DNA of 16,805 nt from a virus (IMGVR_UViG_3300045988_101972:1-16805); one strand, 5' to 3'. Positions 1,387-16,805 are shown, numbered from the stretch's first letter. Program-made: numbers and translations. Notes: a model not told the origin generated them from the letters alone.

Positions 1387-1836
1387 ATGGCTGACAACAC
1401 CAATACCGATATCACCGTAGCTCAGGGCAACAACTTCAGCGCTAACGGCGCTAACGCGCTCTCCCACTTTTTTAACACCGAAACGATGGAGGGAAAGCTC
1501 GCTCTCTACGCGGCCCTACAGTCCAGCGATAAGGTCGATGAACATTTGAACGAGGTTTTGCACGTCACTAACGTGGCTGCGCAGTCCATTGAGGTTGCGG
1601 ACGAGAAGACCGGTGAGTTGAATCCGTCTACCCGCGTGATTATCCACGCCGAAGAGGGCGACTTTACCGCTACGTCCCCGTCTCTTGCGCGTTCGTTCGG
1701 CACTATGTTCTCGATTTTCGGCACGCCGGATAAGTGGGATGAACCGTTTGTTATGAGGGTGGTCGAAAAGAAGGCGCGTTCCGGCTACAAATTCTTCGAC
1801 ATTGAGCCGGTATTGGACTCTAAGAAGTCCAAGTGA
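1387..1836 (+). CDS. Hypothetical early protein (149 aa); candidate ssDNA-binding protein by position only
   Basis: ATG is preceded by AGGCGG (1371-1376) at 10-nt spacing. It lies immediately upstream of the TP and DNAP genes and is followed by a strong hairpin. The function is inferred from synteny with phi29 gene 5, not from a recognised motif. Confidence 0.6.
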   Translation: MADNTNTDITVAQGNNFSANGANALSHFFNTETMEGKLALYAALQSSDKVDEHLNEVLHVTNVAAQSIEVADEKTGELNPSTRVIIHAEEGDFTATSPSLARSFGTMFSIFGTPDKWDEPFVMRVVEKKARSGYKFFDIEPVLDSKKSK

Positions 1837-1842
1837 TATACT
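1834..1842 (+). promoter_or_regulatory. Extended -10 element TGATATACT (copy 1 of a recurrent motif)
   Basis: TGnTATACT overlaps the TGA stop of the upstream CDS. TTGGAC lies 18 nt upstream (1813-1818). The 10-mer GTGATATACT occurs identically at 8970 and 13890. Confidence 0.45.
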
Positions 1843-1882
1843 AGGTGGAGTGGGCTAAAAGGCTCACACTGCCGCCAAGCAC

Positions 1883-1917
1883 TAGCCCCCTATGAGTCAT
1901 GGCATAGGGGGCTATTT
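1883..1917 (+). terminator. Stem-loop with a 12-bp perfect stem plus a short T tract; likely partial terminator or attenuator before the TP and DNAP genes
   Basis: TAGCCCCCTATG (1883-1894) pairs with CATAGGGGGCTA (1903-1914), with an 8-nt loop, followed by TTTAAT. Only 24 nt separate it from the TP start, so downstream genes need read-through. Confidence 0.55.
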
Positions 1918-1938
1918 AATCTCGGAAAGCGGGGGCGT

Positions 1939-2901
1939 GTGGCTAAACGTGGTAGGAATAACAAACGTCAACAGCGACGCGAAACCATACGCGCACGCTC
2001 TCGGCAAGCGCAATTGAACGAACGCTTGCGTGATTATTCCACGGGGCTCATACCCGATATCAACGACAGGAATCTGGGTAGGTTGACAGTCCGGCAGTTG
2101 GAACAGGTTGCCGGAAGAGTGGCTCAAAGGGTTGAAGAGCAACAAGCAGCGTTACGCGCAAGGGACGCGCGTGTTTTTCAAGCCACGCCGGATGTTACTA
2201 TCACCAAGCTTGACAGAGAGTTGGCTAATCGCCCATTAATCACAGACGAGCAGATTGATAACGCGCCGTCGAAACGACGTAAAACTCTACGTCAACAACA
2301 GCGTAGACGTGTTCGCGCGCGGGAGAAAATCAAGCGTGCGCAACAGTATAACGCTTTTAACTTGCAACAGTACACTGTGGGTGAACTGCGTGACCTCGAG
2401 TCGCGGGGAGAATCACCGTTTGAAGTGCTGGGCGGTCGAGTCATACACGAAACACCCGAAGACAATCTAATCAGAAGTCGTAAGAACGTTTTGGCTAACA
2501 AAACGTGGGTGCGCGAAAAAATCAGGCACGGCCGACGTGATGAACTTGAAGCGTATGTTAAAGCATATGCGGGCGTCGCCGGGATGAAGCCGATTGATTT
2601 GCGCGATTTTTTGCCCAGTAACCTACGCTCTGAAAACTTCCGGCCGCTGACTCTCGATTATCGCAGTGGTGTATATGAACAGAAGCTCGAGTCAATGGGC
2701 GTGACAATCGCCGCAAGATATAGTAGACTCAGCAATAGGGCTAAAATTTGGTTACTCGAAAACACGCCTTTTATGAGCTTGTTGGATGAAAGTACTCATT
2801 ATGACGAAAATCAAAAAAAATGGGCGACAAACGCGGGTACCATGCCCGACGTAAAAAATCAGATAGCAGACTATCTAACTCAGGCGGAACGAACGAAATG
2901 A
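1939..2901 (+). CDS. Candidate terminal (priming) protein, 320 aa
   Basis: Lies immediately upstream of the protein-primed DNAP, 6 nt from it, as in phi29-type genomes. It has very basic segments (MAKRGRNNKRQQRRETIRARSR; SKRRKTLRQQQRRRVRAREKIKR). It starts with GTG and has no in-frame ATG nearby. The genome has ITRs. The call rests on position and composition. Confidence 0.6.
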   Translation: MAKRGRNNKRQQRRETIRARSRQAQLNERLRDYSTGLIPDINDRNLGRLTVRQLEQVAGRVAQRVEEQQAALRARDARVFQATPDVTITKLDRELANRPLITDEQIDNAPSKRRKTLRQQQRRRVRAREKIKRAQQYNAFNLQQYTVGELRDLESRGESPFEVLGGRVIHETPEDNLIRSRKNVLANKTWVREKIRHGRRDELEAYVKAYAGVAGMKPIDLRDFLPSNLRSENFRPLTLDYRSGVYEQKLESMGVTIAARYSRLSNRAKIWLLENTPFMSLLDESTHYDENQKKWATNAGTMPDVKNQIADYLTQAERTK

Positions 2902-2907
2902 GGTGTC

Positions 2908-4374
2908 ATGGCGGTACGTTTGGCGGCGGCTACCGACGGTACGACGCTACTGGACAATGAACTGGGGGCGGTAGGTCTCTCAGCGAACACGGTAATGCAA
3001 CTAACTCAGCGCGACAGTAACACGCGCGTTTATTGCGCTCATGGTTGGTCTGACATTGAACGACTCGCAACTGACTTGTTCCGAATATTACCTCACGCCA
3101 CGTCGCCGCAGTCCAACGGGATACGTGGCACGTTTGACACGCGCGGTCACTTTTACAATCTCGCTGTACGCTGGGACAAAACCATTGTTGACTTTGCAGA
3201 CGTGCGCAATATCACGCGCGATAATGAGGTCACTGAAAGCGCGGCCGATTTTGGGGGGGACAGTGACCTTGAAACCACGTGGAACATAGCCCAGTCGCTA
3301 CTGGCCCACAAACTGCAAGGCACGACCATAGGCGCGGTGGCAATGAACGATTACATCGGCGGCGATTATCGTAGGTTCCGGGAAAAATTCCCGCCATTGG
3401 ACGCGACGGACTACGGGCGTATGAGAGCTAGCTACTTTGGTGCGTACTTACAGGCCGAAGCGGGCGAATATGCCGAGTGCTCTAGCTGGGACGTGAACTC
3501 ATTATATCCGTTCATCATGCGCAACATGCCATTGCCGTATGGGGTTCCGGAATGGTATGACGGTAAGTACGTGGCGGACAAAACCATGCCTCTTCATATT
3601 GATGTCATATCATTTGCCGCCACGTTGAAAAAAAACAAATGCCCGACGCTGACAAACCTGTTGCCGTTATGGGGGTTCGAGCATGTTCGACTGCCGAGCA
3701 CGTTCGGCGTGGTCACCATGCCGCTCACCGAGGTAGACCAGCAGACGTTACGCGAAAACTATGACGTTGATATATATGAGGTTCAAGGTGGCTGGAAGTT
3801 CCGCAGAAGCCAAGGGCACTTTCAGGCGTACGTTGATGAATGGTTTCACGTGAAACAATCCGAGACAGGCACTCGGAAACGTATCGCCAAGCTCATGCTT
3901 AACTCGTTGGTGGGAAAGTTCGGCGCAAGCGTCAACAGGCCCATGATGGAACCCGTCTTAGATGAATCAACGCAAGAGCTGCGGTTTGACGTGAAACCGG
4001 CCAACGCTTTGGCGTCACTCGCGTATATGCCGGTGGCTGCGTATGTTAACGCCTATGGACGGCAGATTTTAACACGTGCGATAAACCAGAACCAAGACAG
4101 AGTCATATACGCCGACACCGACAGTATGATAGTGACTGGATTGGACGTGCCTCATGGCATCGAAGCCGACCAAAGTAAGCTGGGCTTATGGAAAAACGAC
4201 TGCCGATACAGGCGGCTGCGAATATTGGGGCCGCGCAAGTATTGCGGGGAGACCATCGAGGGCGATACCGTCATGAGATTGTCTGGGGTCAAACGGCGTG
4301 ACCCGATACCGTACGACAGTTTCTACGCGGGTAGCAGTCTTATGAACGACTACGGTCAGGAGTTTGTGCTATAA
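2908..4374 (+). CDS. Protein-primed family-B DNA polymerase (488 aa)
   Basis: Motif A SWDVNSLYP (nt 3484 onward). Motif B KLMLNSLVGKFG (nt 3889 onward). Motif C VIYADTDSMIV (D403/D405, nt 4114 onward). YxGA motif SYFGA. KxY motif PRKYCG. The spacings A-to-B (133 aa) and B-to-C (75 aa) match the TPR1 and TPR2 insertions typical of protein-primed polymerases. GAGG RBS at 2900-2903. Confidence 0.95.
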   Translation: MAVRLAAATDGTTLLDNELGAVGLSANTVMQLTQRDSNTRVYCAHGWSDIERLATDLFRILPHATSPQSNGIRGTFDTRGHFYNLAVRWDKTIVDFADVRNITRDNEVTESAADFGGDSDLETTWNIAQSLLAHKLQGTTIGAVAMNDYIGGDYRRFREKFPPLDATDYGRMRASYFGAYLQAEAGEYAECSSWDVNSLYPFIMRNMPLPYGVPEWYDGKYVADKTMPLHIDVISFAATLKKNKCPTLTNLLPLWGFEHVRLPSTFGVVTMPLTEVDQQTLRENYDVDIYEVQGGWKFRRSQGHFQAYVDEWFHVKQSETGTRKRIAKLMLNSLVGKFGASVNRPMMEPVLDESTQELRFDVKPANALASLAYMPVAAYVNAYGRQILTRAINQNQDRVIYADTDSMIVTGLDVPHGIEADQSKLGLWKNDCRYRRLRILGPRKYCGETIEGDTVMRLSGVKRRDPIPYDSFYAGSSLMNDYGQEFVL

Positions 4375-4375
4375 T
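4367..4375 (+). promoter_or_regulatory. Extended -10 element TGCTATAAT overlapping the DNAP stop codon
   Basis: A TGnTATAAT consensus with no good -35. It would start transcription near 4382, at the head of the structured non-coding gap preceding the structural genes. Confidence 0.45.
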
Positions 4376-4381
4376 AGGAAT

Positions 4382-4545
4382 GTGCGGGGCATGCCCCTTG
4401 AATTGACACGCTAGCCCTCATGCGTGGCACGCGGTAAGGCGCGGCATGGGGATGTAAATGGTATGCCATACCCTAGGTGCAAAGAGAGTCCCGGCATGAC
4501 CTACATCATTTGTATGGCCCCATTATTGGGGCCATACCCTTAAAC
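4382..4545 (+). other. Structured non-coding region (candidate leader, small RNA or operator cluster) at the replication/structural boundary
   Basis: No ORF longer than 15 codons with an RBS. Hairpins: GGGG-CATG-CCCC (4386-4397); CCCT(C)ATGC (4415-4423) with GCATGGGG (4444-4451); GGTAT-GCC-ATACC (4460-4472); a 10-bp perfect stem GTATGGCCCC / GGGGCCATAC (4512-4537) with loop ATTATT. GGCATG occurs 3 times and GCCATACCCT twice. Confidence 0.5.
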
Positions 4546-4557
4546 GGAAGGAATCTC

Positions 4558-4926
4558 ATGGACAACGATGAAACCGACGTTACCCCGGACGATACCACAC
4601 CGTCCGATACCGGCGACAACGGCGACGGAGAAGACAACCCGCCCGAGCAGAACCCAGAAACACAGGACAACGATACCGACAAGAGCGCTGACCCGGCCGA
4701 AGCCGACACCGATAGCGACATGAACGCGCGTATCACGGCGCTGGAGTCGGCCATCACGGAAATCTCTCAGACCCTTGCGGAGATTCAGGCCGCAAACGCC
4801 AAGACGGTATTGGGCGGTGGCGACGAGTCCAATGACCTACCCGACGAGGCCGACGCGCTCACCGACGATGACGCTAACGGCACCTATCTTACTTTTGACG
4901 ACCTCTACGAAAAGGATGAAGACTAA
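4558..4926 (+). CDS. Putative scaffolding protein (122 aa, highly acidic)
   Basis: ATG at 4558 is preceded by GGAAGGA (4546-4552). The N-half is D/E/T/P-rich and low in complexity, and the C-half is a predicted helix. It lies directly upstream of the capsid gene with a TAATG overlap, as for phi29 gp7. The track start at 4477 was rejected because it has no RBS and crosses hairpins. Confidence 0.65.
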   Translation: MDNDETDVTPDDTTPSDTGDNGDGEDNPPEQNPETQDNDTDKSADPAEADTDSDMNARITALESAITEISQTLAEIQAANAKTVLGGGDESNDLPDEADALTDDDANGTYLTFDDLYEKDED

Positions 4927-6650
4927 TGGCGACTCCAAACGTGACCAATAAGCAGACGTTACGCCCGCTCACCGATTTTAACAATGTCCAGCTGTTGAAC
5001 ATGATTCGCAACGAGGCCAGTCCGGAATACCAACGTCGTATCCCCGCCGCAACCCAGACCAATATGGATATCACCGTTTCTACGCTCATGTCCAGCACCC
5101 AGTTGAAGAACGAGTTTTACTCCTCGCTGATTAACCGTATCGGCGGCACTATGGTACACTCGTGGAAGTGGTCAAACCCGCTTTCCGTGTTCACCCGCGC
5201 GTCGCAGACGTATGGCGACACGTGGCAGGAAGTCGCCGTGGGTATGCCGCTCGCTCAGGTGTACGACCCGAACGCCGAGTACCTCGGGGCCGACAACTTC
5301 CGCAAGTGGAAAGTCGACGTGGACTCGCTCTATCACCGTCTCGACTTTGCGCATTTTTACCCGGTCACCACCGATGATAAAACCCTTCGTCGTGCCTTTA
5401 CGTCTGACAATGGCCTCTCTTCACTGACCTCCCAGCTTATCCAGTCGTGCTACAACGCGGCCGAAGTTGACGTTTTCGAGGCGCTGTGCCACATGTTTAC
5501 GCAGTACGCGCGACTGGGCGGTTATTGGCGTGTCCACATGGACGCCGACCTGAACAAAATGACCAGTACTCAGGATGAGGCGCGCGGATTGTTGCGGCAG
5601 ATTCGCGCGTGGGCCGACAGTCTCAAGTTCGTCTCAACCCGGTATAACGCGCGTCACATGCCCACGTTTGCCAAGCCCGACGAGTTAGTGCTGTTTTGTT
5701 CTCCCGAGGTCAAGTCGGCTTTGGACGTTCAGGGTCTCGCTACCGTGTTCCATCGTACCGACGCAGAGCCGACTATCGACCGTATTATTGTCGTGCCCGA
5801 GGACAGATTCGGCATCGACGGTGTTCAGGCGATTCTCACGACGGACAAATTCCTCATTGACATACCGGTTGTCGAGGAGATGACTCAGCAGACCAACCCC
5901 GTCAATATCAACAGCGTTAACAATTTTTTGCATATGCAACGAATTATCTCGGTGTCGGGTTTCGCCCCGGCCGTGCTGTTCTGGAACGGCGCCGGTTCTA
6001 CGGATAACGTCGTACTTCCGGTCGGCACCGCCGCGACCACGCCGAAGTTCGCGCTGAAGCTTTCCGCCTATGGTGAGGGTGTAACCACGCCGGAGAACGT
6101 GACACGTGGTGGCGCGGTACAGGTCGAGGCTGATACCACCATTACCAATGACGGTCAGGCGTCATGGCGTTCCGGTGCCGTCAAGTATTCTATCGGCGCG
6201 ACCGACAAGAAGCTCTCAGAATGGACGTATATCAGCCCGACGGGTGTATTGGTGGTCGGTATCGATGAGGCCAACACCGTCGTTCCGGTGCAGGCGACTG
6301 CCGATTACATCAACCCGGCTACCCCCGAAGTCCCGAACACGGTGAGCGCGTCCCTTGACGTGCCCGTGGTTGGAGACGGTGTTATCGGGTTCAGTCCGAG
6401 TATTGTTGCGTCCATTACTGTTGACGCCGTTTCGGTCGAGGTTGGTAAGACAGGTCAAGCGCACGCCACTGCCGTGATGATTGACGGCCGTAAAATCGAC
6501 GTGACCAAGCAGGCCGCGTGGACTAGCGCCGCCACTGCGACGGCAACAGTGGATAATACCGGCCTAGTCACCGGCGTGGCCGCCGGTTCTGTCAAACTGA
6601 CCGCCGCGCTGTTCGGCGTCAGCGGTCAGGGCACTGTGACAGTCGCCTAA
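4926..6650 (+). CDS. Major capsid protein with a C-terminal bacterial Ig-like (Big_2-type) domain (574 aa)
   Basis: Remembered similarity to phi29 gp8 (for example LINRIG and YNAAEVD segments). The C-terminal 80 aa (ITVDAVSVEVGKTGQAHATAV...VTGVAAGSVKLTAALFGVSGQGTVTV) have the Big_2 pattern. The gene is followed by a strong terminator. Confidence 0.9.
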   Translation: MATPNVTNKQTLRPLTDFNNVQLLNMIRNEASPEYQRRIPAATQTNMDITVSTLMSSTQLKNEFYSSLINRIGGTMVHSWKWSNPLSVFTRASQTYGDTWQEVAVGMPLAQVYDPNAEYLGADNFRKWKVDVDSLYHRLDFAHFYPVTTDDKTLRRAFTSDNGLSSLTSQLIQSCYNAAEVDVFEALCHMFTQYARLGGYWRVHMDADLNKMTSTQDEARGLLRQIRAWADSLKFVSTRYNARHMPTFAKPDELVLFCSPEVKSALDVQGLATVFHRTDAEPTIDRIIVVPEDRFGIDGVQAILTTDKFLIDIPVVEEMTQQTNPVNINSVNNFLHMQRIISVSGFAPAVLFWNGAGSTDNVVLPVGTAATTPKFALKLSAYGEGVTTPENVTRGGAVQVEADTTITNDGQASWRSGAVKYSIGATDKKLSEWTYISPTGVLVVGIDEANTVVPVQATADYINPATPEVPNTVSASLDVPVVGDGVIGFSPSIVASITVDAVSVEVGKTGQAHATAVMIDGRKIDVTKQAAWTSAATATATVDNTGLVTGVAAGSVKLTAALFGVSGQGTVTVA

Positions 6651-6665
6651 CCTGCGATATAATAA

Positions 6666-6701
6666 AAGGGAGTGTTTCACGTGAAACACTCCCTTATTTT
6701 T
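6666..6701 (+). terminator. Rho-independent terminator after the capsid gene
   Basis: A 15-bp perfect inverted repeat, AAGGGAGTGTTTCAC / GTGAAACACTCCCTT (6666-6695), followed by ATTTTT. Confidence 0.85.
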
Positions 6702-6720
6702 ATGACGAAAAGAGGTAGTT

Positions 6721-8970
6721 GTGCTAAGAGATATCAACCCTAACGTCGAGGCGACGTTTAACTGGGCTCAATGGACACCGAACACGTCGTTGAAACTCTG
6801 TAACGTGCCGTGGGATAGCAGTTACCGCGACCTAGCACGGTTCGAGTCGCCGCAGAAACAGCAGGAGTGGTTTGACCGACAGCCCGGCGTCAGTGGGGTG
6901 CATGGAGTCATGCATGTGTTTGGGCAGCCCGTGCGCGTCGAACTACCGTTTAACGAGGCGTCTAACTACAACTATGTTGTGGTTCATAACGATTACTCCG
7001 ATTTGGAGGCTCCTCGATATTGGTATTATTTCATCAACCACGTGGACTACATCAGTGCGTACACCACTCAGCTCACTGTACAGTTGGACGTTTGGCAGTC
7101 GTTTCAGCATCGACTTAGGTTTGGGTCGTGCTACGTGGTTCGCGGTCACATCGGCATTGCCAACGAAAACCAGATGAGGGATTATGGCCGTAGTTATCTC
7201 GCGCTACCCGAGGGGCTGGACACCGGTAGTGAAATGGTGACGGTAAACCAACAATACAAGTCTCTTGTCGGCATGGACGGGAAAAACCTGAACTACGGCG
7301 TAATAGTCGTGAGCACGGTAGATTTGTCAGCGGACGCGGGCAGTCAGGAAAAACCGTCTCTCACTACTGCGGGCGGCTCTCTCTTCGAGAACATGGCAAA
7401 CGGGGCCGAGATACTGTACTTTAAGGACATTCAGGCCATCCAAGTGTTTATGGGAGTGGGGTCTACTTTTTCGTGGATAACACAGGGTATTGTGTGCATG
7501 TACATGATCCCCTCTTTAGACGATGACTTTCTCAAGAAGTCCGGCTATGTCGTAGATAAGCTTTTTGGGAAAACACTCCCCTCGGAGTTAAACAATCGTA
7601 TCTACCGTTTCCCCCAGTCGGCCACAAACGCGCCCAGCAGATATGAGGACATTATTACCATTAATGATTTTCGCGACAACTTTAATATCCCTGAACGTTA
7701 TAAAAACCTTAAAAAACTCAAGTGCTACCCCTACTCCACTGTTGAATGCACTTGCCTGAACGGGACTAATATCACCTATAAGCCCGAAAACATCCAAAGC
7801 GATAATCTGGTTATCAGAGAGGTTCATAATTACGCGCCCAATGGCGCGCGCTTGAACTTTTATCCGGTTGGATACAATGAGGCGGGTGCAAGCGAGATTG
7901 TTCCTCTTGATAAAAACAATGGGTTGCCTATCGACAGCGGAGAAATGTTGGACGCCGCGTTTGGCATCAGCAACTTTCCCCAGTTCGTAATTGTCAACAA
8001 TGGTGCCCAGTTGGCAATAGCAAACAGTGCCTACACTCGCTCCTACAGCCAACAGTCCGCCGACTGGACATATCAAAAAGCGCAGATGGGCGTTAGCCAG
8101 TCTCTTGCGGCCACGGCCGTGCAAAACCGGTACAATACCCAAGCCAACAAACTCGCTATCGGCAACCGCAACGCCAATAACGCAATTCAAGCGACGGCAC
8201 TTAACACCGGACTGGACAACACGTCATATATCAACAATCAGCGAGCCGACCTCGCACAGCTGAACAACGTGGCTAACGGCGTGGTCGGAGTGGTGGGTAA
8301 CGCCGCTTCGGGCAACGTCGGGGGTGCGATATCCGCGCTGGGTGGTGCGGTCATGAATGGCGTCAACACCGAGTCCAACCGCATCATCAACAATACCGCC
8401 GCCCAACTCTCCACTGCCAACTCTCTGAGTACTAACGCGGCTACGACGAGTCAGGCCAACACGTACGGCTCTCAGACTACGGCGCTTTCAAACCAGTTGG
8501 GCCAAAACATGGCGGACATGAACGCGGACTACGCGCAACGTTCCGCGTTTGGCGACTATCAGAACACTATCGCCGGAGTTAACGCACAGGTCCAGCAGAT
8601 GCAGTTGACGCCCCCTACCACGTCCGGTGCTATCGGTGGAGACGGATTCAATCTCGCCAACGGCATTATCGGAGTGCTGGTGCGATTCAAGACGTGCGCA
8701 CCCTCAGCTCTGCGGAGCGTCGGAGAGTACATGTTGCGCTACGGGTACTTTGTCCAGCGTTTCATCACGCCGCCGCAATCGCTGGAATGTATGACCAAGT
8801 TCTCCTACTGGCAGATGCAAGAGTGCTATGTGCGAGGCGACTTGCCCGAGCAGTATCGGCAGACCATTAAGGGCGTGTTCGAGTCCGGCACTACTGTATG
8901 GGCTGACCCTGATGATATCGGAGTGACCGATTGGGCGGATAACGACCCATTGCCGGGCTTCTCGTTCTAG
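6721..8970 (+). CDS. Tail knob / distal tail tube protein, phi29 gp9-like (749 aa)
   Basis: GTG start with GAGG at 6712-6715. The N-terminal pattern LCNVPWDSSYRDLARFESPQKQQEWF and YWYYFINHVDYIS...QLDVWQSF, the mid pattern KCYPYSTVE and the C-terminal LRYGYFVQR...GTTVWADPDDIG resemble phi29 gp9 from memory. It has a long Q/N/A/G-rich central region. Confidence 0.8.
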   Translation: MLRDINPNVEATFNWAQWTPNTSLKLCNVPWDSSYRDLARFESPQKQQEWFDRQPGVSGVHGVMHVFGQPVRVELPFNEASNYNYVVVHNDYSDLEAPRYWYYFINHVDYISAYTTQLTVQLDVWQSFQHRLRFGSCYVVRGHIGIANENQMRDYGRSYLALPEGLDTGSEMVTVNQQYKSLVGMDGKNLNYGVIVVSTVDLSADAGSQEKPSLTTAGGSLFENMANGAEILYFKDIQAIQVFMGVGSTFSWITQGIVCMYMIPSLDDDFLKKSGYVVDKLFGKTLPSELNNRIYRFPQSATNAPSRYEDIITINDFRDNFNIPERYKNLKKLKCYPYSTVECTCLNGTNITYKPENIQSDNLVIREVHNYAPNGARLNFYPVGYNEAGASEIVPLDKNNGLPIDSGEMLDAAFGISNFPQFVIVNNGAQLAIANSAYTRSYSQQSADWTYQKAQMGVSQSLAATAVQNRYNTQANKLAIGNRNANNAIQATALNTGLDNTSYINNQRADLAQLNNVANGVVGVVGNAASGNVGGAISALGGAVMNGVNTESNRIINNTAAQLSTANSLSTNAATTSQANTYGSQTTALSNQLGQNMADMNADYAQRSAFGDYQNTIAGVNAQVQQMQLTPPTTSGAIGGDGFNLANGIIGVLVRFKTCAPSALRSVGEYMLRYGYFVQRFITPPQSLECMTKFSYWQMQECYVRGDLPEQYRQTIKGVFESGTTVWADPDDIGVTDWADNDPLPGFSF

Positions 8971-8979
8971 TGATATACT
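8971..8979 (+). promoter_or_regulatory. Extended -10 element TGATATACT (copy 2), 6 nt before the portal ATG
   Basis: GTGATATACT at 8970-8979. TTGCCG lies 18 nt upstream (8950-8955). The ATG at 8986 is where a transcription start would be expected. Confidence 0.5.
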
Positions 8980-8985
8980 GGAGAC

Positions 8986-9948
8986 ATGTCTAGGTCGAGG
9001 AAAAATCAGAATCGTAGGGGCGGCGGCGTGCATCCCAGTGGCAATTATGCTAAAACGCGCGCCGTCGCCCTTGATGATATGTATTATCACTTGCTGCGCG
9101 AACTCGCGTTGAACCGGTTCAAATGGCATGGGTTGCCTCCCACGGTTGATGAACGTTGGATGGAGACGTGTCTGCTGGACTATAGTCTCTGCCTGTTTTT
9201 CTACGACAGGCGTATCGGTTCGTTTTTGGCAACTCAGGCGGCTTATCAAGGCCGCTTGAATCTCTACAATAATCCAACCGAGTTTTCCCCAGTCGGGGTT
9301 AACTATCATTACAAGGTTCTCTCGGCGGCCAACGAGTGTGTGCCCATCTGGGATAGTCGCACGCGGTGGCCGTTCAATGATATTCTCTGGATGTACGCCC
9401 GACGTTTGGCGGATATCGACAAGGCGTATCAAGTCAACTTGGACGGGTTGAAACTGCCGACGTTTATCACTGCCGACCAGCGTACCAAGCTCACGGTGGA
9501 AAACATTCTGCACCAGCAGCAAGACGGGCAATCGTTTATCATCGGCTATGACTCGCTCGACCCTTCCAGCATGTTCCAGCCATGGCCTAACACCACGCCC
9601 TATTTGTTGGACAAATTCATCCAGCAAAAAACACAGGTGACCAATGAGGCGTTGAGTTATCTGGGCATTCAGTCCAGCGGCACGGAAAAACAGGAACGTT
9701 TGATAGGCGCTGAGGTTGCTCAGGCCAACGAAAAGACCGACATGTTTCGACTCGCTTTTTTGACGGCGCGACAGGAAGGCGCACGACTGATTAACAGGAT
9801 GTATAACCTGGGCGTATGGGTGGAATACGCGGATACGCAAAGCTCTGGTGTGCCGAACGCGATTGACAATACGCCATCCGGCGGCAACACCACTACGGCA
9901 ATCGGTTCGACAGGCTCTCTTGGAAACGGAACAGGTGGTGTGGTATGA
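8986..9948 (+). CDS. Portal / upper collar (connector) protein, phi29 gp10-like (320 aa)
   Basis: Size and remembered motifs match gp10 (FKWHGLPPTVD near the N-terminus; LSYLGIQSSGTEKQERLIGAEV). Its position is between the tail knob and lower collar genes. Confidence 0.85.
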   Translation: MSRSRKNQNRRGGGVHPSGNYAKTRAVALDDMYYHLLRELALNRFKWHGLPPTVDERWMETCLLDYSLCLFFYDRRIGSFLATQAAYQGRLNLYNNPTEFSPVGVNYHYKVLSAANECVPIWDSRTRWPFNDILWMYARRLADIDKAYQVNLDGLKLPTFITADQRTKLTVENILHQQQDGQSFIIGYDSLDPSSMFQPWPNTTPYLLDKFIQQKTQVTNEALSYLGIQSSGTEKQERLIGAEVAQANEKTDMFRLAFLTARQEGARLINRMYNLGVWVEYADTQSSGVPNAIDNTPSGGNTTTAIGSTGSLGNGTGGVV

Positions 9949-10727: not shown

Positions 10728-10738
10728 GGAGGCAATGC

Positions 10739-11374
10739 ATGATATATAATAATGCGATTATTCCTCGGTTGGCCCCAAGACCGGTGCCCACGTCAGTGCC
10801 TTTTACTTACCGTGACGGCATCACCACGCTGGAGCTCATTGAGTGCGTCAAACGCAATCTGGACACACTCCAGAGCGAATTTAACGGCGTGGTTGATGAA
10901 GTCAATAAAACACTATCGGGCGTAGACGATTCCCTGAACAACGCTCTGGATACCATGAGCGCCGAACTTGAGTCATTGCGGGTGGAACTTATCCGGCTTA
11001 TCAATGAGGCGCAAGGCAGTGGCGTATACCCAAACGTGGTCTACGGCAACGACACCAGCGCATTGCAGATTATGGGCGACGTGTACGACAATACGCGCTA
11101 TTATGGTCTGTTCGCCCGGGACTACGACACTATGGAAATCAGCGCTCTGGATTATGACACGCTCGAAACCCCGGCACGACGGTATGACCTACAAGGCTCA
11201 CGCAAACTAAACCCAGTCCTCGGAGACTTTACAGGTCGTGAGGATTTTTGGGCAACGTTGCCAACTCAGCCGGAAACACCGCAATATGAACCGTTTGCGA
11301 CGAAAAAGTACGTTGATGATAATTTTATGACGCTCAACCCCACTGTAGACCAGTTCGACCCGAGGAAGGGATGA
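10739..11374 (+). CDS. Tail appendage / fibre-associated protein (211 aa), coiled-coil
   Basis: AAGGAGG at 10726-10732 with 6-nt spacing. It has a heptad-like segment (LDTLQSEFNGVVDEVNKTLSGVDDSLNNALDTMSAELESLRVELIRLINEA) and a fibre-type motif, FATKKYVDDNF. Its position follows the collar genes. Confidence 0.55.
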   Translation: MIYNNAIIPRLAPRPVPTSVPFTYRDGITTLELIECVKRNLDTLQSEFNGVVDEVNKTLSGVDDSLNNALDTMSAELESLRVELIRLINEAQGSGVYPNVVYGNDTSALQIMGDVYDNTRYYGLFARDYDTMEISALDYDTLETPARRYDLQGSRKLNPVLGDFTGREDFWATLPTQPETPQYEPFATKKYVDDNFMTLNPTVDQFDPRKG

Positions 11375-11378
11375 CACA

Positions 11379-11684
11379 ATGCCCAGCACCAATAAAACAG
11401 CCAATTATGCGTTATCCCAGTTCTCGGCGGGGGATAAACCGAGTTTTCTGCGCGACTATAACTCGGATATGGCGACAATTGACGCCCAGATGAAGAAAAA
11501 CGCCGACGCCGCCGCGTCCGGGGGGCATGTTGACGCGTACACCAAAGCGCAATCCGACGCCAGATACGCGCCGAAAACGACGACGCCCCCGGACGATACC
11601 GCTCTCGGCGTCACCGCGGGTGACTTTGATAGGCTATACATCGACTCTGACAATATTGTGCGTTTCAAGCCAAAAACAGCGTAA
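11379..11684 (+). CDS. Short fibre-like protein (101 aa) sharing an N-terminal anchor with the next gene
   Basis: GAGGAAGGG RBS. The N-terminal 41 aa are about 50 percent identical to the product of 11719..12582. It carries the fibre motif DAYTKAQSDARYAPK. Confidence 0.6.
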   Translation: MPSTNKTANYALSQFSAGDKPSFLRDYNSDMATIDAQMKKNADAAASGGHVDAYTKAQSDARYAPKTTTPPDDTALGVTAGDFDRLYIDSDNIVRFKPKTA

Positions 11685-11718
11685 TAGAGTAATTGCCAAC
11701 AACAAGGAGATAGATATC

Positions 11719-12582
11719 ATGAGCAGTGTCAATAAAACAGTACACTACGGGCTCTCGCAGTTCGGGGACGCCGATAAACCGTCATGGCGCGGAGACTACA
11801 CGGGAGACATGGCAAAAATCGATACGGCAATGACGGAAAACAAGAACAGCGCACAAACCGCCATCACCAACGCCAACAATGCCGTAACTCAGGTCGGTAC
11901 CGTGAAAGCCACGGCGGACGCAAACAAGGCCATGCTTTCGGCGATGGGCGTCAACGACACGACCGAAGCCACCGGGTTTAAAAACCGGGTCAACGCGACA
12001 AATTCCAAAGCCGACTCAGCCATTAAAAATCTGACAGCTCTGGGGGCTGATACGGAAGTCAAGGCGACGGCTCTCGCAAAGGAGCTCTCGGATAATACGG
12101 CAAACGTGCAACAGGTGACAACCCAGCTTACAGGCAAAGCCGATTTGTCCCAGGTGTACACGCGGACTCAGGCCAACAGCACGTTTGAGACTGTTAACGC
12201 CGCAAACGCCGCGCACAGCGCTATTAACAACGACCTTAGCAGCAAGGCCAGTTCTGTTGACCTCGATACCGCCGTAGGACGCGTCGACGCCATCGAAAGC
12301 ACGTTTTTTGACAAAAACCTTATCCAGCGAATTAATGTCAATGGAGTGACGGAAGATAACGGCCTCTACACAGTCAGACTCACCCAGCCAACTGGGACAG
12401 ACACTGACCCGACTGTGATATGGACTCAGAGTCACGCCAATACTGACACTGAGAAGGCTTACTTTTGGGAAATCTGGAACGTTACGCGCTCTTCGGTGAC
12501 AGTTCGCCCGAAAACAAACGAAGGCGCTTGGGTTTCGGGAAAACACACGATTAGAGGTTTTCTCATTGTAGCATGGTTCTAA
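11719..12582 (+). CDS. Tail fibre / receptor-binding protein candidate (287 aa)
   Basis: ATG at 11719 is preceded by AAGGAG (11704-11709). The track start at 11527 was rejected because it overlaps the previous CDS and has no RBS. The protein has the shared anchor, an Ala/Asn/Thr-rich helical shaft and a distinct C-terminal globular part. Confidence 0.65.
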   Translation: MSSVNKTVHYGLSQFGDADKPSWRGDYTGDMAKIDTAMTENKNSAQTAITNANNAVTQVGTVKATADANKAMLSAMGVNDTTEATGFKNRVNATNSKADSAIKNLTALGADTEVKATALAKELSDNTANVQQVTTQLTGKADLSQVYTRTQANSTFETVNAANAAHSAINNDLSSKASSVDLDTAVGRVDAIESTFFDKNLIQRINVNGVTEDNGLYTVRLTQPTGTDTDPTVIWTQSHANTDTEKAYFWEIWNVTRSSVTVRPKTNEGAWVSGKHTIRGFLIVAWF

Positions 12583-12590
12583 CCGTTCCG

Positions 12591-12614
12591 ACACCCCGCC
12601 TCATGGCGGGGTGT
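12591..12614 (+). terminator. 10-bp GC-rich stem-loop after the fibre gene (weak terminator or RNA-stability element)
   Basis: ACACCCCGCC-TCAT-GGCGGGGTGT, followed by TATCAT, which is a poor U tract. Confidence 0.4.
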
Positions 12615-12641
12615 TATCATATCGAGAACAGGAGCAAAGGC

Positions 12642-13859
12642 ATGGCAGTTGACTTTAAAACATGGGTAAAGCAAACCGAAAACCACTTTTGGGATATGGA
12701 CGGCAGTTGGGGCCCCCAATGTTGGGACCTGTGGGCCAAGTATTGCATGGATGAATACGGGTGCAGTGTTCAGGATTGCGTCACCCCGACAGGTTGGGCA
12801 GGGGGATTGTACGCTAATCATCCAGTGAGCGCAAGAGTCGGGGAGATTTTCGAAAAAAAAGACAACACGTGGGAGCCTATGCCCGGCGACGTTGCCATAT
12901 GGCAAGTCTGTTATCCCAACTATCCGTCAACACACGTGGCCATTGTCGTTGACGGGATACAAGGCGACTCCATCGACGTGCTCACCCAAAACCCGGAGCC
13001 AAGCGTTCATAAACTACTCCCATTGCAGAAATCATGTATCGGATATCTGCATCCACGTAAAAAACCGGACGGGGGAGACAATAACAGCGGGTCAAACAAT
13101 ACAGGTTCAAACAATCCGGGCAACACGTCCAGCAGTGACGCGTGGATACAGCAACAAGGGGATAATCTTATCTACCATTATCGAGACAACGACAGTGGCG
13201 CGGGTACGCTGATTTTTTATAAGGCCACAGCTCAGACATGGACCGCCAAAGGCAGTGCGAAAGCCCCCAACGATTCAAACGGACAGGCCACGCCGTCTGT
13301 AGGCAACGGCAAAAGCAGTTACGCTCTCTACTGCATCGGCACCGTGGAAAGCTCACTACAATGGGATGCGGTTGAGTTAGCCAACATGCAGGGAATTGGC
13401 ATTGCGCAATGGTCGTTTGACAGGCGACTGGACGTTTTGAACGCCATGAGGAAAGCCGACCCAACAGGCTATGAGACGTTTGCCAAAGCGTGCCCCGAGA
13501 TAGCGTCGCTCATGGATGATGACGGGGTGTTTACGCGCCCCTTGACGGCAATAGAATCGGCGGCGTTCAAGACATGGGCGCAACGCCCCGAGTCACATCA
13601 GGGACAACGAAACCAGTTCGAGGCAGACTACAACGGATATCACCATGTGTATGACGACATCAAAATGCAGATACTGTGGGCGTCGGCATATCATCAGGGC
13701 CCGGCTTACGCGGAAGTGTTGCCAAAAGCGACAACGTTGGACGGGTTGCTGGCCAATCTGCTTAATGACGGCGTTTTCGGGCAATATCCCAATCGATATC
13801 AGACGGTGTATAATCTGTTGGTTGTCTGGGATGGGACTAGCGCCCCGCCGAACTTTTAG
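12642..13859 (+). CDS. Virion-associated peptidoglycan hydrolase: N-terminal CHAP domain plus C-terminal lysozyme / lytic-transglycosylase-like domain (405 aa)
   Basis: ATG at 12642 with AGGAG at 12630-12634. CHAP signature: GPQCWDLW (Cys), THVAIVV (His), TQNPEP. The linker is Gly/Asn/Ser-rich. The C-terminal domain has GTVESS...GIGIAQWS, resembling the E-S / G-x-x-Q motifs of SLT-like enzymes. It occupies the slot of phi29 gp13. Confidence 0.8.
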   Translation: MAVDFKTWVKQTENHFWDMDGSWGPQCWDLWAKYCMDEYGCSVQDCVTPTGWAGGLYANHPVSARVGEIFEKKDNTWEPMPGDVAIWQVCYPNYPSTHVAIVVDGIQGDSIDVLTQNPEPSVHKLLPLQKSCIGYLHPRKKPDGGDNNSGSNNTGSNNPGNTSSSDAWIQQQGDNLIYHYRDNDSGAGTLIFYKATAQTWTAKGSAKAPNDSNGQATPSVGNGKSSYALYCIGTVESSLQWDAVELANMQGIGIAQWSFDRRLDVLNAMRKADPTGYETFAKACPEIASLMDDDGVFTRPLTAIESAAFKTWAQRPESHQGQRNQFEADYNGYHHVYDDIKMQILWASAYHQGPAYAEVLPKATTLDGLLANLLNDGVFGQYPNRYQTVYNLLVVWDGTSAPPNF

Positions 13860-13890
13860 TTATCCACAATATTATACACATATCCACATG

Positions 13891-13899
13891 TGATATACT
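13891..13899 (+). promoter_or_regulatory. Extended -10 element TGATATACT (copy 3), 6 nt before the ATPase ATG
   Basis: GTGATATACT at 13890-13899. There is no SD sequence before ATG 13906. Upstream repeats: TATCCACA (13861, 13881) and TATACACA (13873). Confidence 0.5.
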
Positions 13900-13905
13900 G
13901 TGATT

Positions 13906-14994
13906 ATGGATGATAAAACGATGTTTCTTAATGAGAACGATTATTATGATTACACGCGCGTGCTATCATATCACGCGCCGTGGATGTTCATTATCGGCGC
14001 ACGCGGTCTCGGCAAAACCTACGGCGGCAAAAAACTCATGATAGACGATTGGATGAAACGACGTTGGCAGTTTATCTATCTACGCCGTACCGCCGAAGAA
14101 CAAAAAAACAAGGGCACGTTTTTCAACGATATCGCAGACAGTTATCCCGAACTAGATTTTAGGGTCAACGGCAACCAGGCGGAATGTCATTGGGCCGACG
14201 ATAGAGACGCTATAGTCGATAAAAACGGAAAAAAGAAGTCAGTGTGGCATATCATCGGCTATTTTATAGCGCTCTCGCAAGCCGGACAGGTCAAGTCAGT
14301 GGCATACCCGCGCGTACGTACCATACTGTTTGACGAAGTCTTTCCAGACACCATGCGCTACCTAGGGGGTGAGGTTACTGCGTTGGAGGAATTTTACAAC
14401 ACGGTAGACCGATGGCACGACCGCGTGCGCCTTATCTTGTGTTCGAACGCCGTAAGTCTGGCCAACCCGTACTTTGCGGCATTTAACATCAACGTCACGC
14501 CGCAAGTCGAGAACAAGATTCAATATCAACGGTACTGCGATTCTTTCATCGTGGTGGAACTCGCTGACTATGGCGGGTTTTCCGCCAAAATCGCCAAAAG
14601 CAAGTTTGGTCAATTCCTCAGCAAGTTCGACGCGGACTATGCCTCATATTCCATCAACAACACGTTCCGAGACAACAGCAACACGCTTATAAGCAACCTC
14701 AGCGGCGCGGGATATGTTTTGTCGATAAAGACACGCGAATACGGGGCGTTTGCTGTCTATCAAATTCTGAACGACAGTAAAATCATGACGGTATGGCAGA
14801 TAGCGCGCCGCCAACCCAAGAAGCAAAAGTGGTACACGCTGGACTATCGATTAGTCGACGAAAAGTGCATATTGTTGAAAAAATCAGATGATATCATCAA
14901 GAAACTAATTGAGGCGTACCGTGTAGGGCGTGTTCGATTCGAGACGCCGCAAACAAAATCAGAATTTAGTATGTTATTAGGCTCGCTTTTTTAA
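13906..14994 (+). CDS. DNA encapsidation (packaging) ATPase, phi29 gp16-like
   Basis: Walker A FIIGARGLGKTYG and Walker B RTILFDEVF. The size (about 362 aa) and family pattern match gp16-type ATPases. The start may be ATG 13906 (leaderless model) or GTG 13900 (ORF track). Confidence 0.9.
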   Translation: MDDKTMFLNENDYYDYTRVLSYHAPWMFIIGARGLGKTYGGKKLMIDDWMKRRWQFIYLRRTAEEQKNKGTFFNDIADSYPELDFRVNGNQAECHWADDRDAIVDKNGKKKSVWHIIGYFIALSQAGQVKSVAYPRVRTILFDEVFPDTMRYLGGEVTALEEFYNTVDRWHDRVRLILCSNAVSLANPYFAAFNINVTPQVENKIQYQRYCDSFIVVELADYGGFSAKIAKSKFGQFLSKFDADYASYSINNTFRDNSNTLISNLSGAGYVLSIKTREYGAFAVYQILNDSKIMTVWQIARRQPKKQKWYTLDYRLVDEKCILLKKSDDIIKKLIEAYRVGRVRFETPQTKSEFSMLLGSLF

Positions 14995-15034
14995 CTTTCA
15001 AGCACAACAAAATAAAAAAGAAAAGGACAAATCA

Positions 15035-15403
15035 ATGCAACACTATATAGCACCACTTATAATCACGGCCGCGTTCATTATCATGGATTATGGTACCGGC
15101 GTCGCAAACGCGATTATGCACAATCAAGTGAACAGCGAAAAAATGAGAAACGGATTATGGCACAAATTCGCGTACGTCATAGTAATAAGTACTGCCTCCC
15201 TCATAGAGTACGGAGCCCAATGGCTTGAGCTAGGGTTCAATCTCCCCCTAGTTATACCGGTGATAGTATCCATTTGTCTGATTGAAGTCACATCCATTCT
15301 GGAAAACTGCACTAAAATCAACCCCGAACTTAAAAGCAACAAGGTACTGAACGTTTTCAGTGAAGCCCAGAACGGAAAGACAGACAATAACAATAATCAT
15401 TAA
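15035..15403 (+). CDS. Holin (122 aa), Phage_holin_4_1-like
   Basis: AAGGA RBS at 15023-15027. Three hydrophobic segments. Family hallmarks are MDYGTGVANAI near the N-terminus and LIEVTSILEN. The C-tail is polar. It lies directly upstream of the endolysin. Confidence 0.85.
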   Translation: MQHYIAPLIITAAFIIMDYGTGVANAIMHNQVNSEKMRNGLWHKFAYVIVISTASLIEYGAQWLELGFNLPLVIPVIVSICLIEVTSILENCTKINPELKSNKVLNVFSEAQNGKTDNNNNH

Positions 15404-15408
15404 ATGTA

Positions 15409-15417
15409 TGGTACAAT
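15409..15417 (+). promoter_or_regulatory. Possible extended -10 element TGGTACAAT upstream of the endolysin gene
   Basis: A TGnTACAAT match located between the holin stop and the endolysin RBS. This is a single weak observation. Confidence 0.3.
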
Positions 15418-15461
15418 AATCTCGACAATAGCACCGACCACGACAGAGAGGAATATTGATT

Positions 15462-16301
15462 ATGGCTCTCAACGGAATCGACATATCAAGCCATCAAACG
15501 GGCATAAACCTAGCCATAGTACCGTGTGACTTTGTTATCATCAAGGTCACACAAGGTACACGCCATGTCAACGCGGATTGGGAACGACAGGCAAAACAGG
15601 CAATCAACTCCGGCAAACTTGTAGCATTCTACCACTATGCAGAAGGCACTAGCCCAAGCGCCGAACGCGAGTTTTTCCTAAGACAACTGGGAGACTACGC
15701 CCAATACTATCCAATGGCGTGCGACTGGGAACAAGACTACAATATCCGATACCACGTCAATGACACTCAATGGGTATCCGCTTTCATGAGCGGACTCCCC
15801 TACAGCCGCCAAAACATGATATACTGTAGCGCATTTGACCGTGGATATTTTGACCACCTCGGGCACCCAATGTGGATAGCGCAATATGCAGACACCAACC
15901 CCACAGGATACCAAGCAAACCCATGGAATGAACCCAACACGCCATGCACTGTTCGTCAATACTCGGGAACAGGCCGCCTAAATGGCTGGGGCGAAAACCT
16001 TGACCTCGACAAATTCTACGGAGACAAAAAAACATGGTATAATGTTTTCGGACAACGTAAAAACATTGTCCTAACCTATGACAAGGATAACCCAATGCAA
16101 GCAATCATTCAACCGAACGAGGAACCGCGCCTAGTATGGTTCGACGGCTCCAAGCTACACTCGCTCACCCATCCAGACCAAGTAACAGCACTACGTGAAG
16201 TCGCCAAAGCGTGCGGCACCACAATTCCGACATTTAAGCTCGGAACCAAAAAAGCACCATGGTACACACGACTTAAGCAAGCAGTAGATCTAGGAGAGTA
16301 A
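15462..16301 (+). CDS. Endolysin: GH25 muramidase domain plus a C-terminal domain of about 70 aa of unknown type
   Basis: N-terminal NGIDISSHQTGINLAIVPCDFVIIKVTQGT and the acidic pair in ACDWEQD are typical of GH25. ATG at 15462 is preferred; the track start TTG at 15456 is possible. Confidence 0.9.
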   Translation: MALNGIDISSHQTGINLAIVPCDFVIIKVTQGTRHVNADWERQAKQAINSGKLVAFYHYAEGTSPSAEREFFLRQLGDYAQYYPMACDWEQDYNIRYHVNDTQWVSAFMSGLPYSRQNMIYCSAFDRGYFDHLGHPMWIAQYADTNPTGYQANPWNEPNTPCTVRQYSGTGRLNGWGENLDLDKFYGDKKTWYNVFGQRKNIVLTYDKDNPMQAIIQPNEEPRLVWFDGSKLHSLTHPDQVTALREVAKACGTTIPTFKLGTKKAPWYTRLKQAVDLGE

Positions 16302-16646: not shown

Positions 16647-16655
16647 AGTATAACA
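16647..16655 (-). promoter_or_regulatory. Extended -10 element TGTTATACT (- strand) for the right-end gene
   Basis: The reverse complement of 16647-16655 reads TGTTATACT. The predicted start is about 16640, immediately before the GGGAGG RBS. TTGTGT lies 17 nt upstream. Confidence 0.45.
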
Positions 16656-16680: not shown

Positions 16681-16805
16681 GGCGTGTCGAAAACAAAAAA
16701 CCAGAAACAAGAGTGAAAAACCACGCCCAAGTCGCCAGTAATACGTTCCGCCTTCAACTTCAACACAACTCAGCCAACTCCTCACAATAACACTCACTAT
16801 TATAC

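Follow-up and report, generated by a model that had tools for sequence, protein, structure and literature searches.

Probable extended -10 promoter elements conserved at four gene junctions of a phi29-like phage genome, with candidate leaderless mRNAs and non-coding RNAs

The subject of this analysis is a short sequence, GTGATATACT, that recurs between the genes of a 16,805-bp stretch of viral DNA (IMGVR_UViG_3300045988_101972:1-16805; the whole stretch is called the window here) and that a preliminary description of the same DNA had taken for a phage-specific class of promoter. The window is the complete linear genome of a phi29-like podovirus: it is bounded by perfect 95-bp inverted terminal repeats (1-95 and 16711-16805) and carries the phi29-type gene set of SSB, B-family DNA polymerase, major head protein, tail, upper and lower collar proteins, packaging ATPase, holin, and endolysin, with + as the coding strand for every gene except one. 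The terminal repeats are far longer than the 6 bp of phi29, and the terminal sequence of both genome ends starts with GTATAAT. The G+C content is 51%, the value also given in a 2024 review for a similar-sized “human gut phage, Bifidobacterium (suggested)” (PMC11476376).

A whole-window megablast against GenBank phages returned no match, and relatives were therefore sought through proteins. The best cultured relatives by protein are all Bifidobacterium phages (BadAztec/BadAargau, BD811P1-3, and BP1), with identities of 37-43% in the capsid and ~35% in the DNA polymerase, and the gene order of BD811P3 is identical to that of the window throughout. Judged by protein similarity alone, the host is probably Bifidobacterium or another actinobacterium. 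Scanning IMG/VR with the connector (upper-collar) protein gave 80 related metagenomic genomes, which split by connector identity into a close clade of 10 (94-97%) and 70 distant relatives (~72-74%); searches for related loci with the DNA polymerases of BD811P3 and BadAztec1 yielded nothing new. Orthologous junctions in the relatives were placed by tblastn.

Three copies of GTGATATACT occur in the window, all of them on the + strand (at 1833, 8970, and 13890; Table 1), against an expectation of 0.01, and three copies were reached in 0/200 shuffles. The 9-mer TGATATACT has a further + strand copy at 15817, and if one mismatch is tolerated there are 10 matches versus 2.35 expected, among them TGTTATACT on the - strand at 16655-16647. 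A variant, TGCTATAAT, stands on the + strand at 4367-4375 (GTGCTATAAT in its 10-mer form, from 4366). All of these copies are present as the preliminary description had reported, and so is the packing of the intergenic ones against stop codons: the 1833 copy overlaps the TGA of the SSB gene (1834-1836), the 8970 copy touches the TAG of the tail gene (8968-8970), and the TAA of the DNA polymerase gene (4372-4374) lies within the TATAAT hexamer of the 4366 element. As a result of the tight packing of the genome, each element abuts or enters the stop codon that ends the preceding gene. The likeness among the GTGATATACT copies ends at 10 bases, and their flanking sequences are unrelated.

Looking for the motif at the equivalent junctions of the relatives, we found it kept at all four. 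The tail/connector junction has [G/A]TGn, TANNNT, six nucleotides, and ATG in 80/80 relatives, with TATACT (46), TATGAT (15), TACAAT (8), TATAAT (4), TATGCT (4), and TACACT (3) as hexamers and 21 distinct 6-nt spacers; the stop codon moves between a TAG ahead of the motif and a TGA inside it, and the motif is unchanged. The ATPase junction shows TGn[T/C]ANNNT, 6-7 nt, and ATG or GTG in 66/71 relatives, and the remaining 5 have the hexamer without TG; ten hexamer variants occur there, all TANNNT save CATAAT (17 sites). The close clade retains GTGATATACT-N6-ATG at this junction, and in the distant clades the sequence upstream is non-homologous and includes a long palindrome. TGnTANNNT is present between the SSB and terminal-protein genes in 62/65 relatives, again with ten hexamer variants, all of them TANNNT. 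Finally, the end of the DNA polymerase gene has TGnTATrAT in 68/68 relatives, and the element recurs in the cultured phages BD811P3, BP1, BadAztec1, and BadAargau2 and in the uncultured faecal contig MT836241, which share just ~35% DNA polymerase identity with the window. There the stop codon of the polymerase lies inside the -10 hexamer (CTA TAA T; TAG in BadAztec1) in the relatives inspected from each lineage, and the last three polymerase codons (V-L-stop in the window) would serve also as a promoter. Over all relatives, TG is fixed together with the first two bases and the last base of the hexamer (T, A, and T), whose three inner bases vary, as do the flanks.

This conservation makes it very hard to regard the recurrence as functionless, whether as chance or as a residue of recombination between the short junctions of a mosaic genome, and we rank that explanation lowest. 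It can draw on the frequency of the loose pattern TGNTANNNT (44 copies, 25 on the + strand and 19 on the - strand), as a result of which a match alone means little and only the exact 10-mer and its placement are informative, and on the copies at 15817 and 16655, which have no informative conservation. However, three exact 10-mers stand against an expectation of 0.01, and four orthologous junctions retain the pattern, in as many as 80 genomes and between lineages with ~35% protein identity, while look-alikes drift: the in-gene one-mismatch look-alikes TGATATTCT at 537, 1321, and 9378 keep the pattern in 6/17, 5/65, and 2/80 relatives.

The conserved positions are those of an extended -10 promoter. 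TG stands one base ahead of the hexamer at 1834, 4367, 8971, and 13891, and the best -35-like hexamers at the sites (TGGACT, TTGCCG) have 4/6 matches, 17-18 bp away, in coding sequence with varying synonymous positions. Extended -10 promoters of Actinobacteria and Bifidobacterium have the same TG-n-TANNNT with a weak or absent -35, co-directional with the downstream units, and the fixed and free positions in the 80 relatives agree with them (bioRxiv 10.64898/2026.08.12.744520; PMC6448022). A -10 of the form TANNNT has been reported both for Bifidobacterium (bioRxiv 10.64898/2026.08.12.744520) and for mycobacterial SigA (PMC6448022). The predicted promoters of the window differ from the generic extended -10 in having three copies identical over 10 bases, including the G at -17, and in the fusion of the elements to preceding stop codons. 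In addition, a full promoter, TTGACA-17-TATAAT, is found at 938-966 (Table 1) and is conserved as TTGAYW-17-TANNNT in 61/63 relatives, mostly with the hexamer TATACT; in 46 relatives TATACT is joined to a perfect TTGACA -35. The full and the -35-less promoters thus share one -10 hexamer, which points to a single sigma factor.

We read GTGATATACT and GTGCTATAAT, with a probability of roughly 0.75, as extended -10 elements that the housekeeping sigma-A RNA polymerase of the host would recognize largely or wholly without a -35, and that would launch two leaderless mRNAs and two non-coding RNAs. The four conserved elements would thereby define four short-range transcription units. As a motif this is ordinary biology, an element of a known kind, but it yields a first testable transcription map for abundant, uncultured gut phi29-like phages that probably live on Bifidobacterium.

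The preliminary description had gone further and seen in the elements a phage-specific class, distinct from the full promoters of the early region and suggestive of temporal promoter classes. Put as a mechanism, the 10-mer would be the site of a phage-encoded activator, sigma-like protein, or anti-sigma appropriator and would mark a separate middle or late class; the late promoter A3 of phi29, which has no -35 box and needs protein p4, offers an analogy. Such a factor would account for three sites that are identical over 10 bases, beyond what sigma-A needs, and for -35 matches of at best 4/6 in a genome whose early region has full -35/-10 promoters, and several early open reading frames (ORFs) have no recognizable function; conserved repeats also lie directly upstream of the ATPase site. 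We nevertheless consider it unlikely. The four sites of the relatives carry different hexamers within one genome and change independently (relative L003 has GTGCTATACT at the connector site, and L005 has ATGATATACT at the ATPase site), the exact 10-mer is restricted to the window's close clade, and what is conserved beyond it is just the generic TG-n-TANNNT, equal to the reported actinobacterial motif, whose TATACT form is also used with TTGACA. The sites occupy both replication and structural regions and mark no single temporal block, and PHROGs and Pfam searches of the phage proteins recognized no sigma factor, RNA polymerase, or regulator, with five small early ORFs remaining without assignable function. 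Conservation at four junctions thus supports the repeated elements as extended -10 promoters, and the qualifiers “phage-specific” and “temporal class” are not supported.

The transcription map of phi29 (A1, A2b/c, and C2 early; A3 late with p4; a terminator in gene 4) has the same order of modules as the one predicted here, namely SSB, terminal protein, DNA polymerase, and then a small RNA gene under a promoter of its own. A1 of phi29 reads TTGACA-17-TGCTATAAT, whereas the 4366 element of the window is without a full -35. Unlike in phi29, the genes of the window lie on one strand but for one, internal promoters are predicted ahead of the connector and ATPase genes, and no p4-like activator or p4 sites were recognized in the window.

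Table 1. Promoter elements, genes, and RNAs discussed in the text (window coordinates unless a relative is named)
Feature	Position	Strand	Remarks
Full promoter TTGACA-17-TATAAT	938-966	+	Inside gene 463-1023, ahead of gene 1037; 12/12 consensus positions
Extended -10 promoter G-TG-A-TATACT	1833-1842	+	Overlaps SSB stop; predicted start ~1849
Small RNA unit, ~70 nt (predicted)	1849-1922	+	5' hairpin 1850-1867; linker UGCCGCC 1870-1876; intrinsic terminator 1883-1914; U-rich tail
Extended -10 promoter GTGCTATAAT	4366-4375	+	In last three polymerase codons (V-L-stop); predicted start ~4382
Polymerase stop within hexamer	4370-4375; L081 4651-4656; L082; also L086, L087, L088	- in L082
Structured non-coding RNA, ~165 nt	4382-4545	+	Core ~125 nt and separate 3' hairpin 4512-4537
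Acidic scaffold-like gene	4558-4926	+	Start ATG 4558, Shine-Dalgarno GGAAGGAA ahead
Extended -10 promoter	8970-8979	+	6 nt, then ATG of upper-collar (connector) gene
Connector (portal) gene	8986-9948	+	Matches phi29 gp10 (1h5w, E 2.5e-33), PHROG 2038; predicted leaderless
DnaA-box-like 9-mers TTATCCACA, TTATACACA, ATATCCACA	13860-13888	+	Directly upstream of ATPase promoter
Extended -10 promoter	13890-13899	+	6 nt, then ATG of packaging ATPase gene
phi29-type packaging ATPase gene	13906-14994	+	phi29 gp16 (7jqq_A residues 4-316 of 332, E 5.8e-35), PHROG 2150; predicted leaderless
Candidate extended -10 TGGTACAAT	15409-15417		Between holin and endolysin genes; leader ~38 nt
Fourth 9-mer copy	15817-15825	+	Inside endolysin gene, codons N-M-I-Y-C
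TGTTATACT	16655-16647	-	Upstream of Shine-Dalgarno and ATG (16627) of sole minus-strand gene

At the 8970 and 13890 sites the hexamer ends 6 nt ahead of an ATG, so that transcription would begin on the A of the start codon itself (8986 and 13906). The spacer between hexamer and start codon is N6 in 80/80 connector junctions and N6-7 in the ATPase junctions, and its sequence varies (GGAGAC, AGAGGC, GGTAGT, GGCAAT, and others). Over the 43 spacer variants (21 + 22), the base at -1 is a pyrimidine in 151/151 junctions (80/80 connector, 71/71 ATPase), as expected from the Y(-1)R(+1) rule for the starts of bacterial transcripts (PMC4782308). Neither start has a usable Shine-Dalgarno sequence: any GGAG sits 2 nt from the ATG, too near to work as one, and other genes of the window have normal Shine-Dalgarno spacing. 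Upstream start codons are ruled out by in-frame stops (8971-8973 and 13891-13893). On either strand, the arrangement TANNNT-N6/7-ATG/GTG at the head of an ORF of 50 codons or more was found at no real gene starts but those of the connector and the ATPase. The fixed 6-nt distance to the ATG was absent from the preliminary description, as were both non-coding RNAs described below.

The connector and the ATPase are thus probably expressed from leaderless mRNAs. Leaderless starts make up 15% of transcription starts in B. pseudolongum (PMC4782308) and leaderless mRNAs ~24% of transcripts in mycobacteria, where a 5'-terminal ATG or GTG suffices for translation (PMC6448022). The two junctions resemble actinobacterial leaderless mRNAs in having the hexamer 6-7 nt before ATG/GTG, no Shine-Dalgarno at working distance, and Y(-1)R(+1); they are unlike the known actinobacterial cases in that the layout stands inside the late operon of a phi29-like phage, serves a portal and an ATPase, and has predicted 5' ends. 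Leaderless mRNAs are common in Actinobacteria and tend to weaker expression, which would fit the connector and ATPase if, as we assume, these are needed in few copies. A leaderless portal and packaging ATPase have not been described before for phi29-like phages.

The same spacing bears on whether the motif acts in RNA rather than in DNA, as a stop-restart signal coupling translation or as an RNase processing site on a long polycistronic transcript. Every intergenic copy touches or contains a stop codon, and reinitiation is plausible at the connector, whose ATG lies 13 nt past the tail stop and has no usable Shine-Dalgarno. However, what is conserved corresponds to a -10 element in DNA and to no known coupling or cleavage signal; the stop codon moves relative to an unaltered motif in the relatives; the stop upstream of the ATPase is 46 nt off in the window and variable in the relatives, while the distance from hexamer to ATG stays at 6-7 nt; and two of the copies precede non-coding RNA, where there is no start codon. 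An RNA-level role is, in our view, very improbable.

Several points weigh against the proposal of sigma-A promoters with two leaderless mRNAs. We infer transcription initiation at the sites, the use of the host sigma-A enzyme, and the roles of the RNAs from sequence, and every start given here is a predicted one. Three identical 10-mers are more uniformity than a generic -10 needs, and since early ORFs without recognizable function are present, a factor reading all 10 bases keeps a small probability; the loose pattern is frequent, as stated above. The similarity to Bifidobacterium phages that is the sole basis of the host assignment lies at 35-43% of protein sequence, and a scan of bacterial genomes with the endolysin matched just two metagenome-assembled genomes, both Firmicutes, which did not identify the host. 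The cultured relatives also differ: both junctions of BD811P3 have promoters of TATAAT type, followed however by leaders with Shine-Dalgarno sequences, and BadAztec1 has no promoter at either junction, which makes the leaderless layout specific to the window's metagenomic clades. Ribosomes that terminate at the tail-gene stop, 13 nt ahead of the connector ATG, could moreover reinitiate on the connector.

The region directly upstream of the ATPase promoter contains three 9-mers (Table 1) that resemble what we take to be the DnaA-box consensus. The outer two are kept in the close clade, with variable sequence between them, and L008 and L009 carry TTGTCCACA; host DnaA or another repeat-binding protein could control the ATPase promoter. 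The distant clades (L014 and most others) have instead, ~20-50 nt upstream of the ATPase start and close ahead of the -10, a perfect palindrome with arms of 12-13 bp, for example GACAGACCGGTAGATATCTACCGGTCTGTC, with a possible role as operator or terminator. Between the clades, the regulatory sequence of the ATPase has thus been replaced while the -10-to-ATG geometry stayed.

The other two promoters mark conserved non-coding RNA genes that are absent from every annotation. The one at 1833 would start an RNA of ~70 nt, composed of a hairpin, a linker, and a terminator, between the SSB gene and the presumed terminal-protein gene; the unit lies just upstream of the Shine-Dalgarno and GTG (1939) of the latter. 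The 5' hairpin has 7 bp, the terminator is the strongest terminator-like hairpin of the window, and the fold has a minimum free energy of -33.8 kcal/mol (z = -4.1; 0/200 shuffles as good). The structure was drawn from single-sequence folds and inspection, the small RNAs of the two clades being not alignable by sequence (MAFFT and RNAalifold). The order of hairpin, linker, and terminator is kept in both clades, with differing hairpin sequences and an invariant linker, and BadAztec1 has UGCCGC near the predicted 5' end. The product could be free RNA, or it could act as a leader controlling how much transcription reads on into the terminal-protein gene. Its terminator, past the SSB gene, is reminiscent of the one in phi29 gene 4, which lies at a comparable point and is thought to favor p5/p6 over the genes downstream (PMC11476376).

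Two further observations concern this junction. The linker can pair over 9 bp with polymerase codons 5-8 (2920-2928; UUGGCGGCG in the window and GGCGGCAAC in the distant clade), and the duplex extends to opposite sides in the two clades; this is a weak lead, since the target is a pair of Ala codons, the sequence GGCGGC occurs often, and neither BadAztec1 nor BD811P3 has the site. Ahead of the terminal-protein gene, the Shine-Dalgarno region consists of an A-run followed by a G-run, the length of which varies (L032, L058, L063, L072, and others; e.g., AAAAAAAGGGGGGGG vs. AAGGGGGAGG) and may reflect either an assembly artefact or a homopolymer that tunes translation.

The promoter at 4366 would start a structured RNA of ~165 nt between the polymerase and scaffold genes, and the 182 bases ahead of the scaffold ATG at 4558 are non-coding and highly structured. 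The TGCTATAAT element is present where the preliminary description had placed it, but the gene beyond it begins at this ATG and not at the GTG at 4477: tblastn alignments to the relatives start at residue 27-31 of the GTG-4477 ORF, where the relatives have a Shine-Dalgarno sequence and ATG. We rejected GTG 4477 as the start of an over-extended ORF, the 81 bases 4477-4557 of which belong to the structured RNA.

The core of this RNA is a long bulged helix of its 5' and 3' parts that closes a three-way junction. Of its two branches, branch 1 carries UGGCA (4425-4429) in a 5' bulge and is capped by the hexaloop GUAAGG, and branch 2 has UGCCA (4464-4468) as its loop. RNAalifold on 67 distinct sequences gave 46 pairs, 25 of them with compensatory double changes, most of which separate the two clades and thus reflect few events affecting many independent pairs. 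Consensus helix 1 (columns 4-6/144-146), which lies upstream of the predicted start and is 88.6% paired, was not counted. The consensus has 98.6% of cells paired and a covariation score of 0.313, compared with 0.015-0.068 in controls with the partners shifted by 1-3 columns. Folded singly, the RNAs of the window, L013, BD811P3, and BadAztec1 take the same topology, with little sequence in common. We conclude with high confidence that the RNA at 4382-4545 is a real conserved structure. Rfam searches of these four at E up to 1 gave no family match, at most chance small nucleolar RNA or microRNA hits. A covariance model (R1) trained on 25 sequences from the window's clade and the distant ones found only the window RNA and none in BD811P3, BP1, MT836241, BadAztec1, BadAargau2, or phi29. 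Because R1 misses the other lineages, homology between lineages is argued from synteny, the overlap of promoter and stop codon, and fold topology, and not from sequence.

A side observation extends to Curtobacterium phage Thatch (L089), a phi29-like phage of an actinobacterium that is more distant from the window and has two non-coding gaps of 160-210 nt after its polymerase gene (2174-2337 and 2575-2784), the first with a TTGACA/TGGTACAGT promoter and a long hairpin and the second with a strong terminator at its end. Among actinobacterial phi29-like phages, structured RNA downstream of the polymerase may be a widespread feature.

By analogy with phi29, the 4382-4545 RNA could be the counterpart of packaging RNA (pRNA) in the window's clade and in the Bifidobacterium phi29-like phages, docking the gp16-type ATPase on the prohead as a ring held by kissing between bulge and loop; we put this forward tentatively, at slightly less than even odds. 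The consensus of phi29 pRNA comprises a bulged closing helix, a junction, branch 1 (stem, 9-nt 5' bulge, 4-bp stem, 6-nt loop), a 3-nt linker, and branch 2 with a 5-nt loop, and that of the window RNA comprises a bulged closing helix, a junction, branch 1 (stem, 7-nt 5' bulge, 4-bp stem, loop GUAAGG), a linker of 8 instead of 3 nt, and a branch 2 hairpin. The element order in the minimum free energy folds of four lineages and in the covariation-supported consensus equals that of the Rfam pRNA consensus line. The sizes are also similar, with a core of ~125 nt plus a dispensable-looking 3' hairpin in the window and 120 + 54 nt in phi29, and so are the gene positions: SSB, terminal protein, polymerase, small genes, A1, and pRNA in phi29, and SSB, terminal protein, polymerase, TGCTATAAT, and the RNA in the window.

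In phi29 pRNA, AACC of the bulge, the right-hand loop, forms base pairs with GGUU of the branch 2 loop, the left-hand loop, in an adjacent molecule, so that rings can form. The complementarity between bulge and loop in the window's clade is UGGCA/UGCCA (5 bp, p ~0.002, in a comparison made after the fact); BP1 and MT836241 have GCCA/UGGC with swapped polarity (4 bp, p ~0.03), BD811P3 has GCCA/UGGU, the distant clade has GGC/GCC alone (3 bp, p ~0.4), and none is evident in BadAztec. The pRNA of phi29 itself has p ~0.05 in the same test, a value with which those of the lineages are comparable. The packaging ATPase and connector of the window are likewise of phi29 type (gp16 and gp10), and the alignment of the ATPase to gp16 extends through the C-terminal domain. 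The alignment of the enzyme of lactococcal phage asccphi28 is confined to the N-terminal domain, and pRNA is not evident in that phage (PMC7823558).

Two kinds of evidence weaken the pRNA interpretation. The Rfam pRNA model RF00044, which finds the phi29 pRNA at 145 bits, matches none of the window, L013, BD811P3, and BadAztec1 at E up to 1, and R1 in turn misses the phi29 pRNA. Furthermore, the 3' hairpin in the window's clade has a poor U-tract with the scaffold gene directly next to it, so that a role as structured leader of the late operon is an alternative; BD811P3 and BP1 have a 3' hairpin with a good U-tract followed by a separate promoter, which favors a free-standing RNA. pRNA was called unique to Bacillus phages in a 2024 review (PMC11476376), and other phi29-like phages reportedly give no sign of it (PMC7823558). 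If the interpretation is true, this would be the first pRNA outside Bacillus phages, and would provide very divergent pRNA sequences for RNA nanotechnology and for the study of motor evolution; with BD811P1-3 and BP1 in culture, the use of pRNA by phi29-like phages beyond Bacillus is directly testable here.

The remaining copies of the motif, which the preliminary description had listed alongside the intergenic ones, have no informative conservation. The endolysin cassette with the 15817 copy is found only in L002 and L010, whose gene region is ~91% identical, and conservation of the copy is therefore uninformative; we rejected it as an internal promoter, there being also no ATG at +7, and it is probably coincidental. 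The copy on the - strand at 16655, a possible right-end promoter, is not conserved, since close relatives have other sequence ahead of the orthologous gene. We assign no function to either copy. The candidate extended -10 at 15409, in the gap from holin to endolysin gene, is found only where the endolysin cassette is shared (L010; L002 has TGGTACGAT).

Apart from the promoters, a palindrome, GTTTCACGTGAAAC, is present at 3843-3861 in the polymerase gene and again at 6674-6692, the two copies having 95% identity across 19 nt, with a looser copy, GTTTGACGTGAAAC, at 3984-4002. The copy at 6674-6692 sits in the stem of a bidirectional terminator-like hairpin (6666-6695) after the capsid gene.

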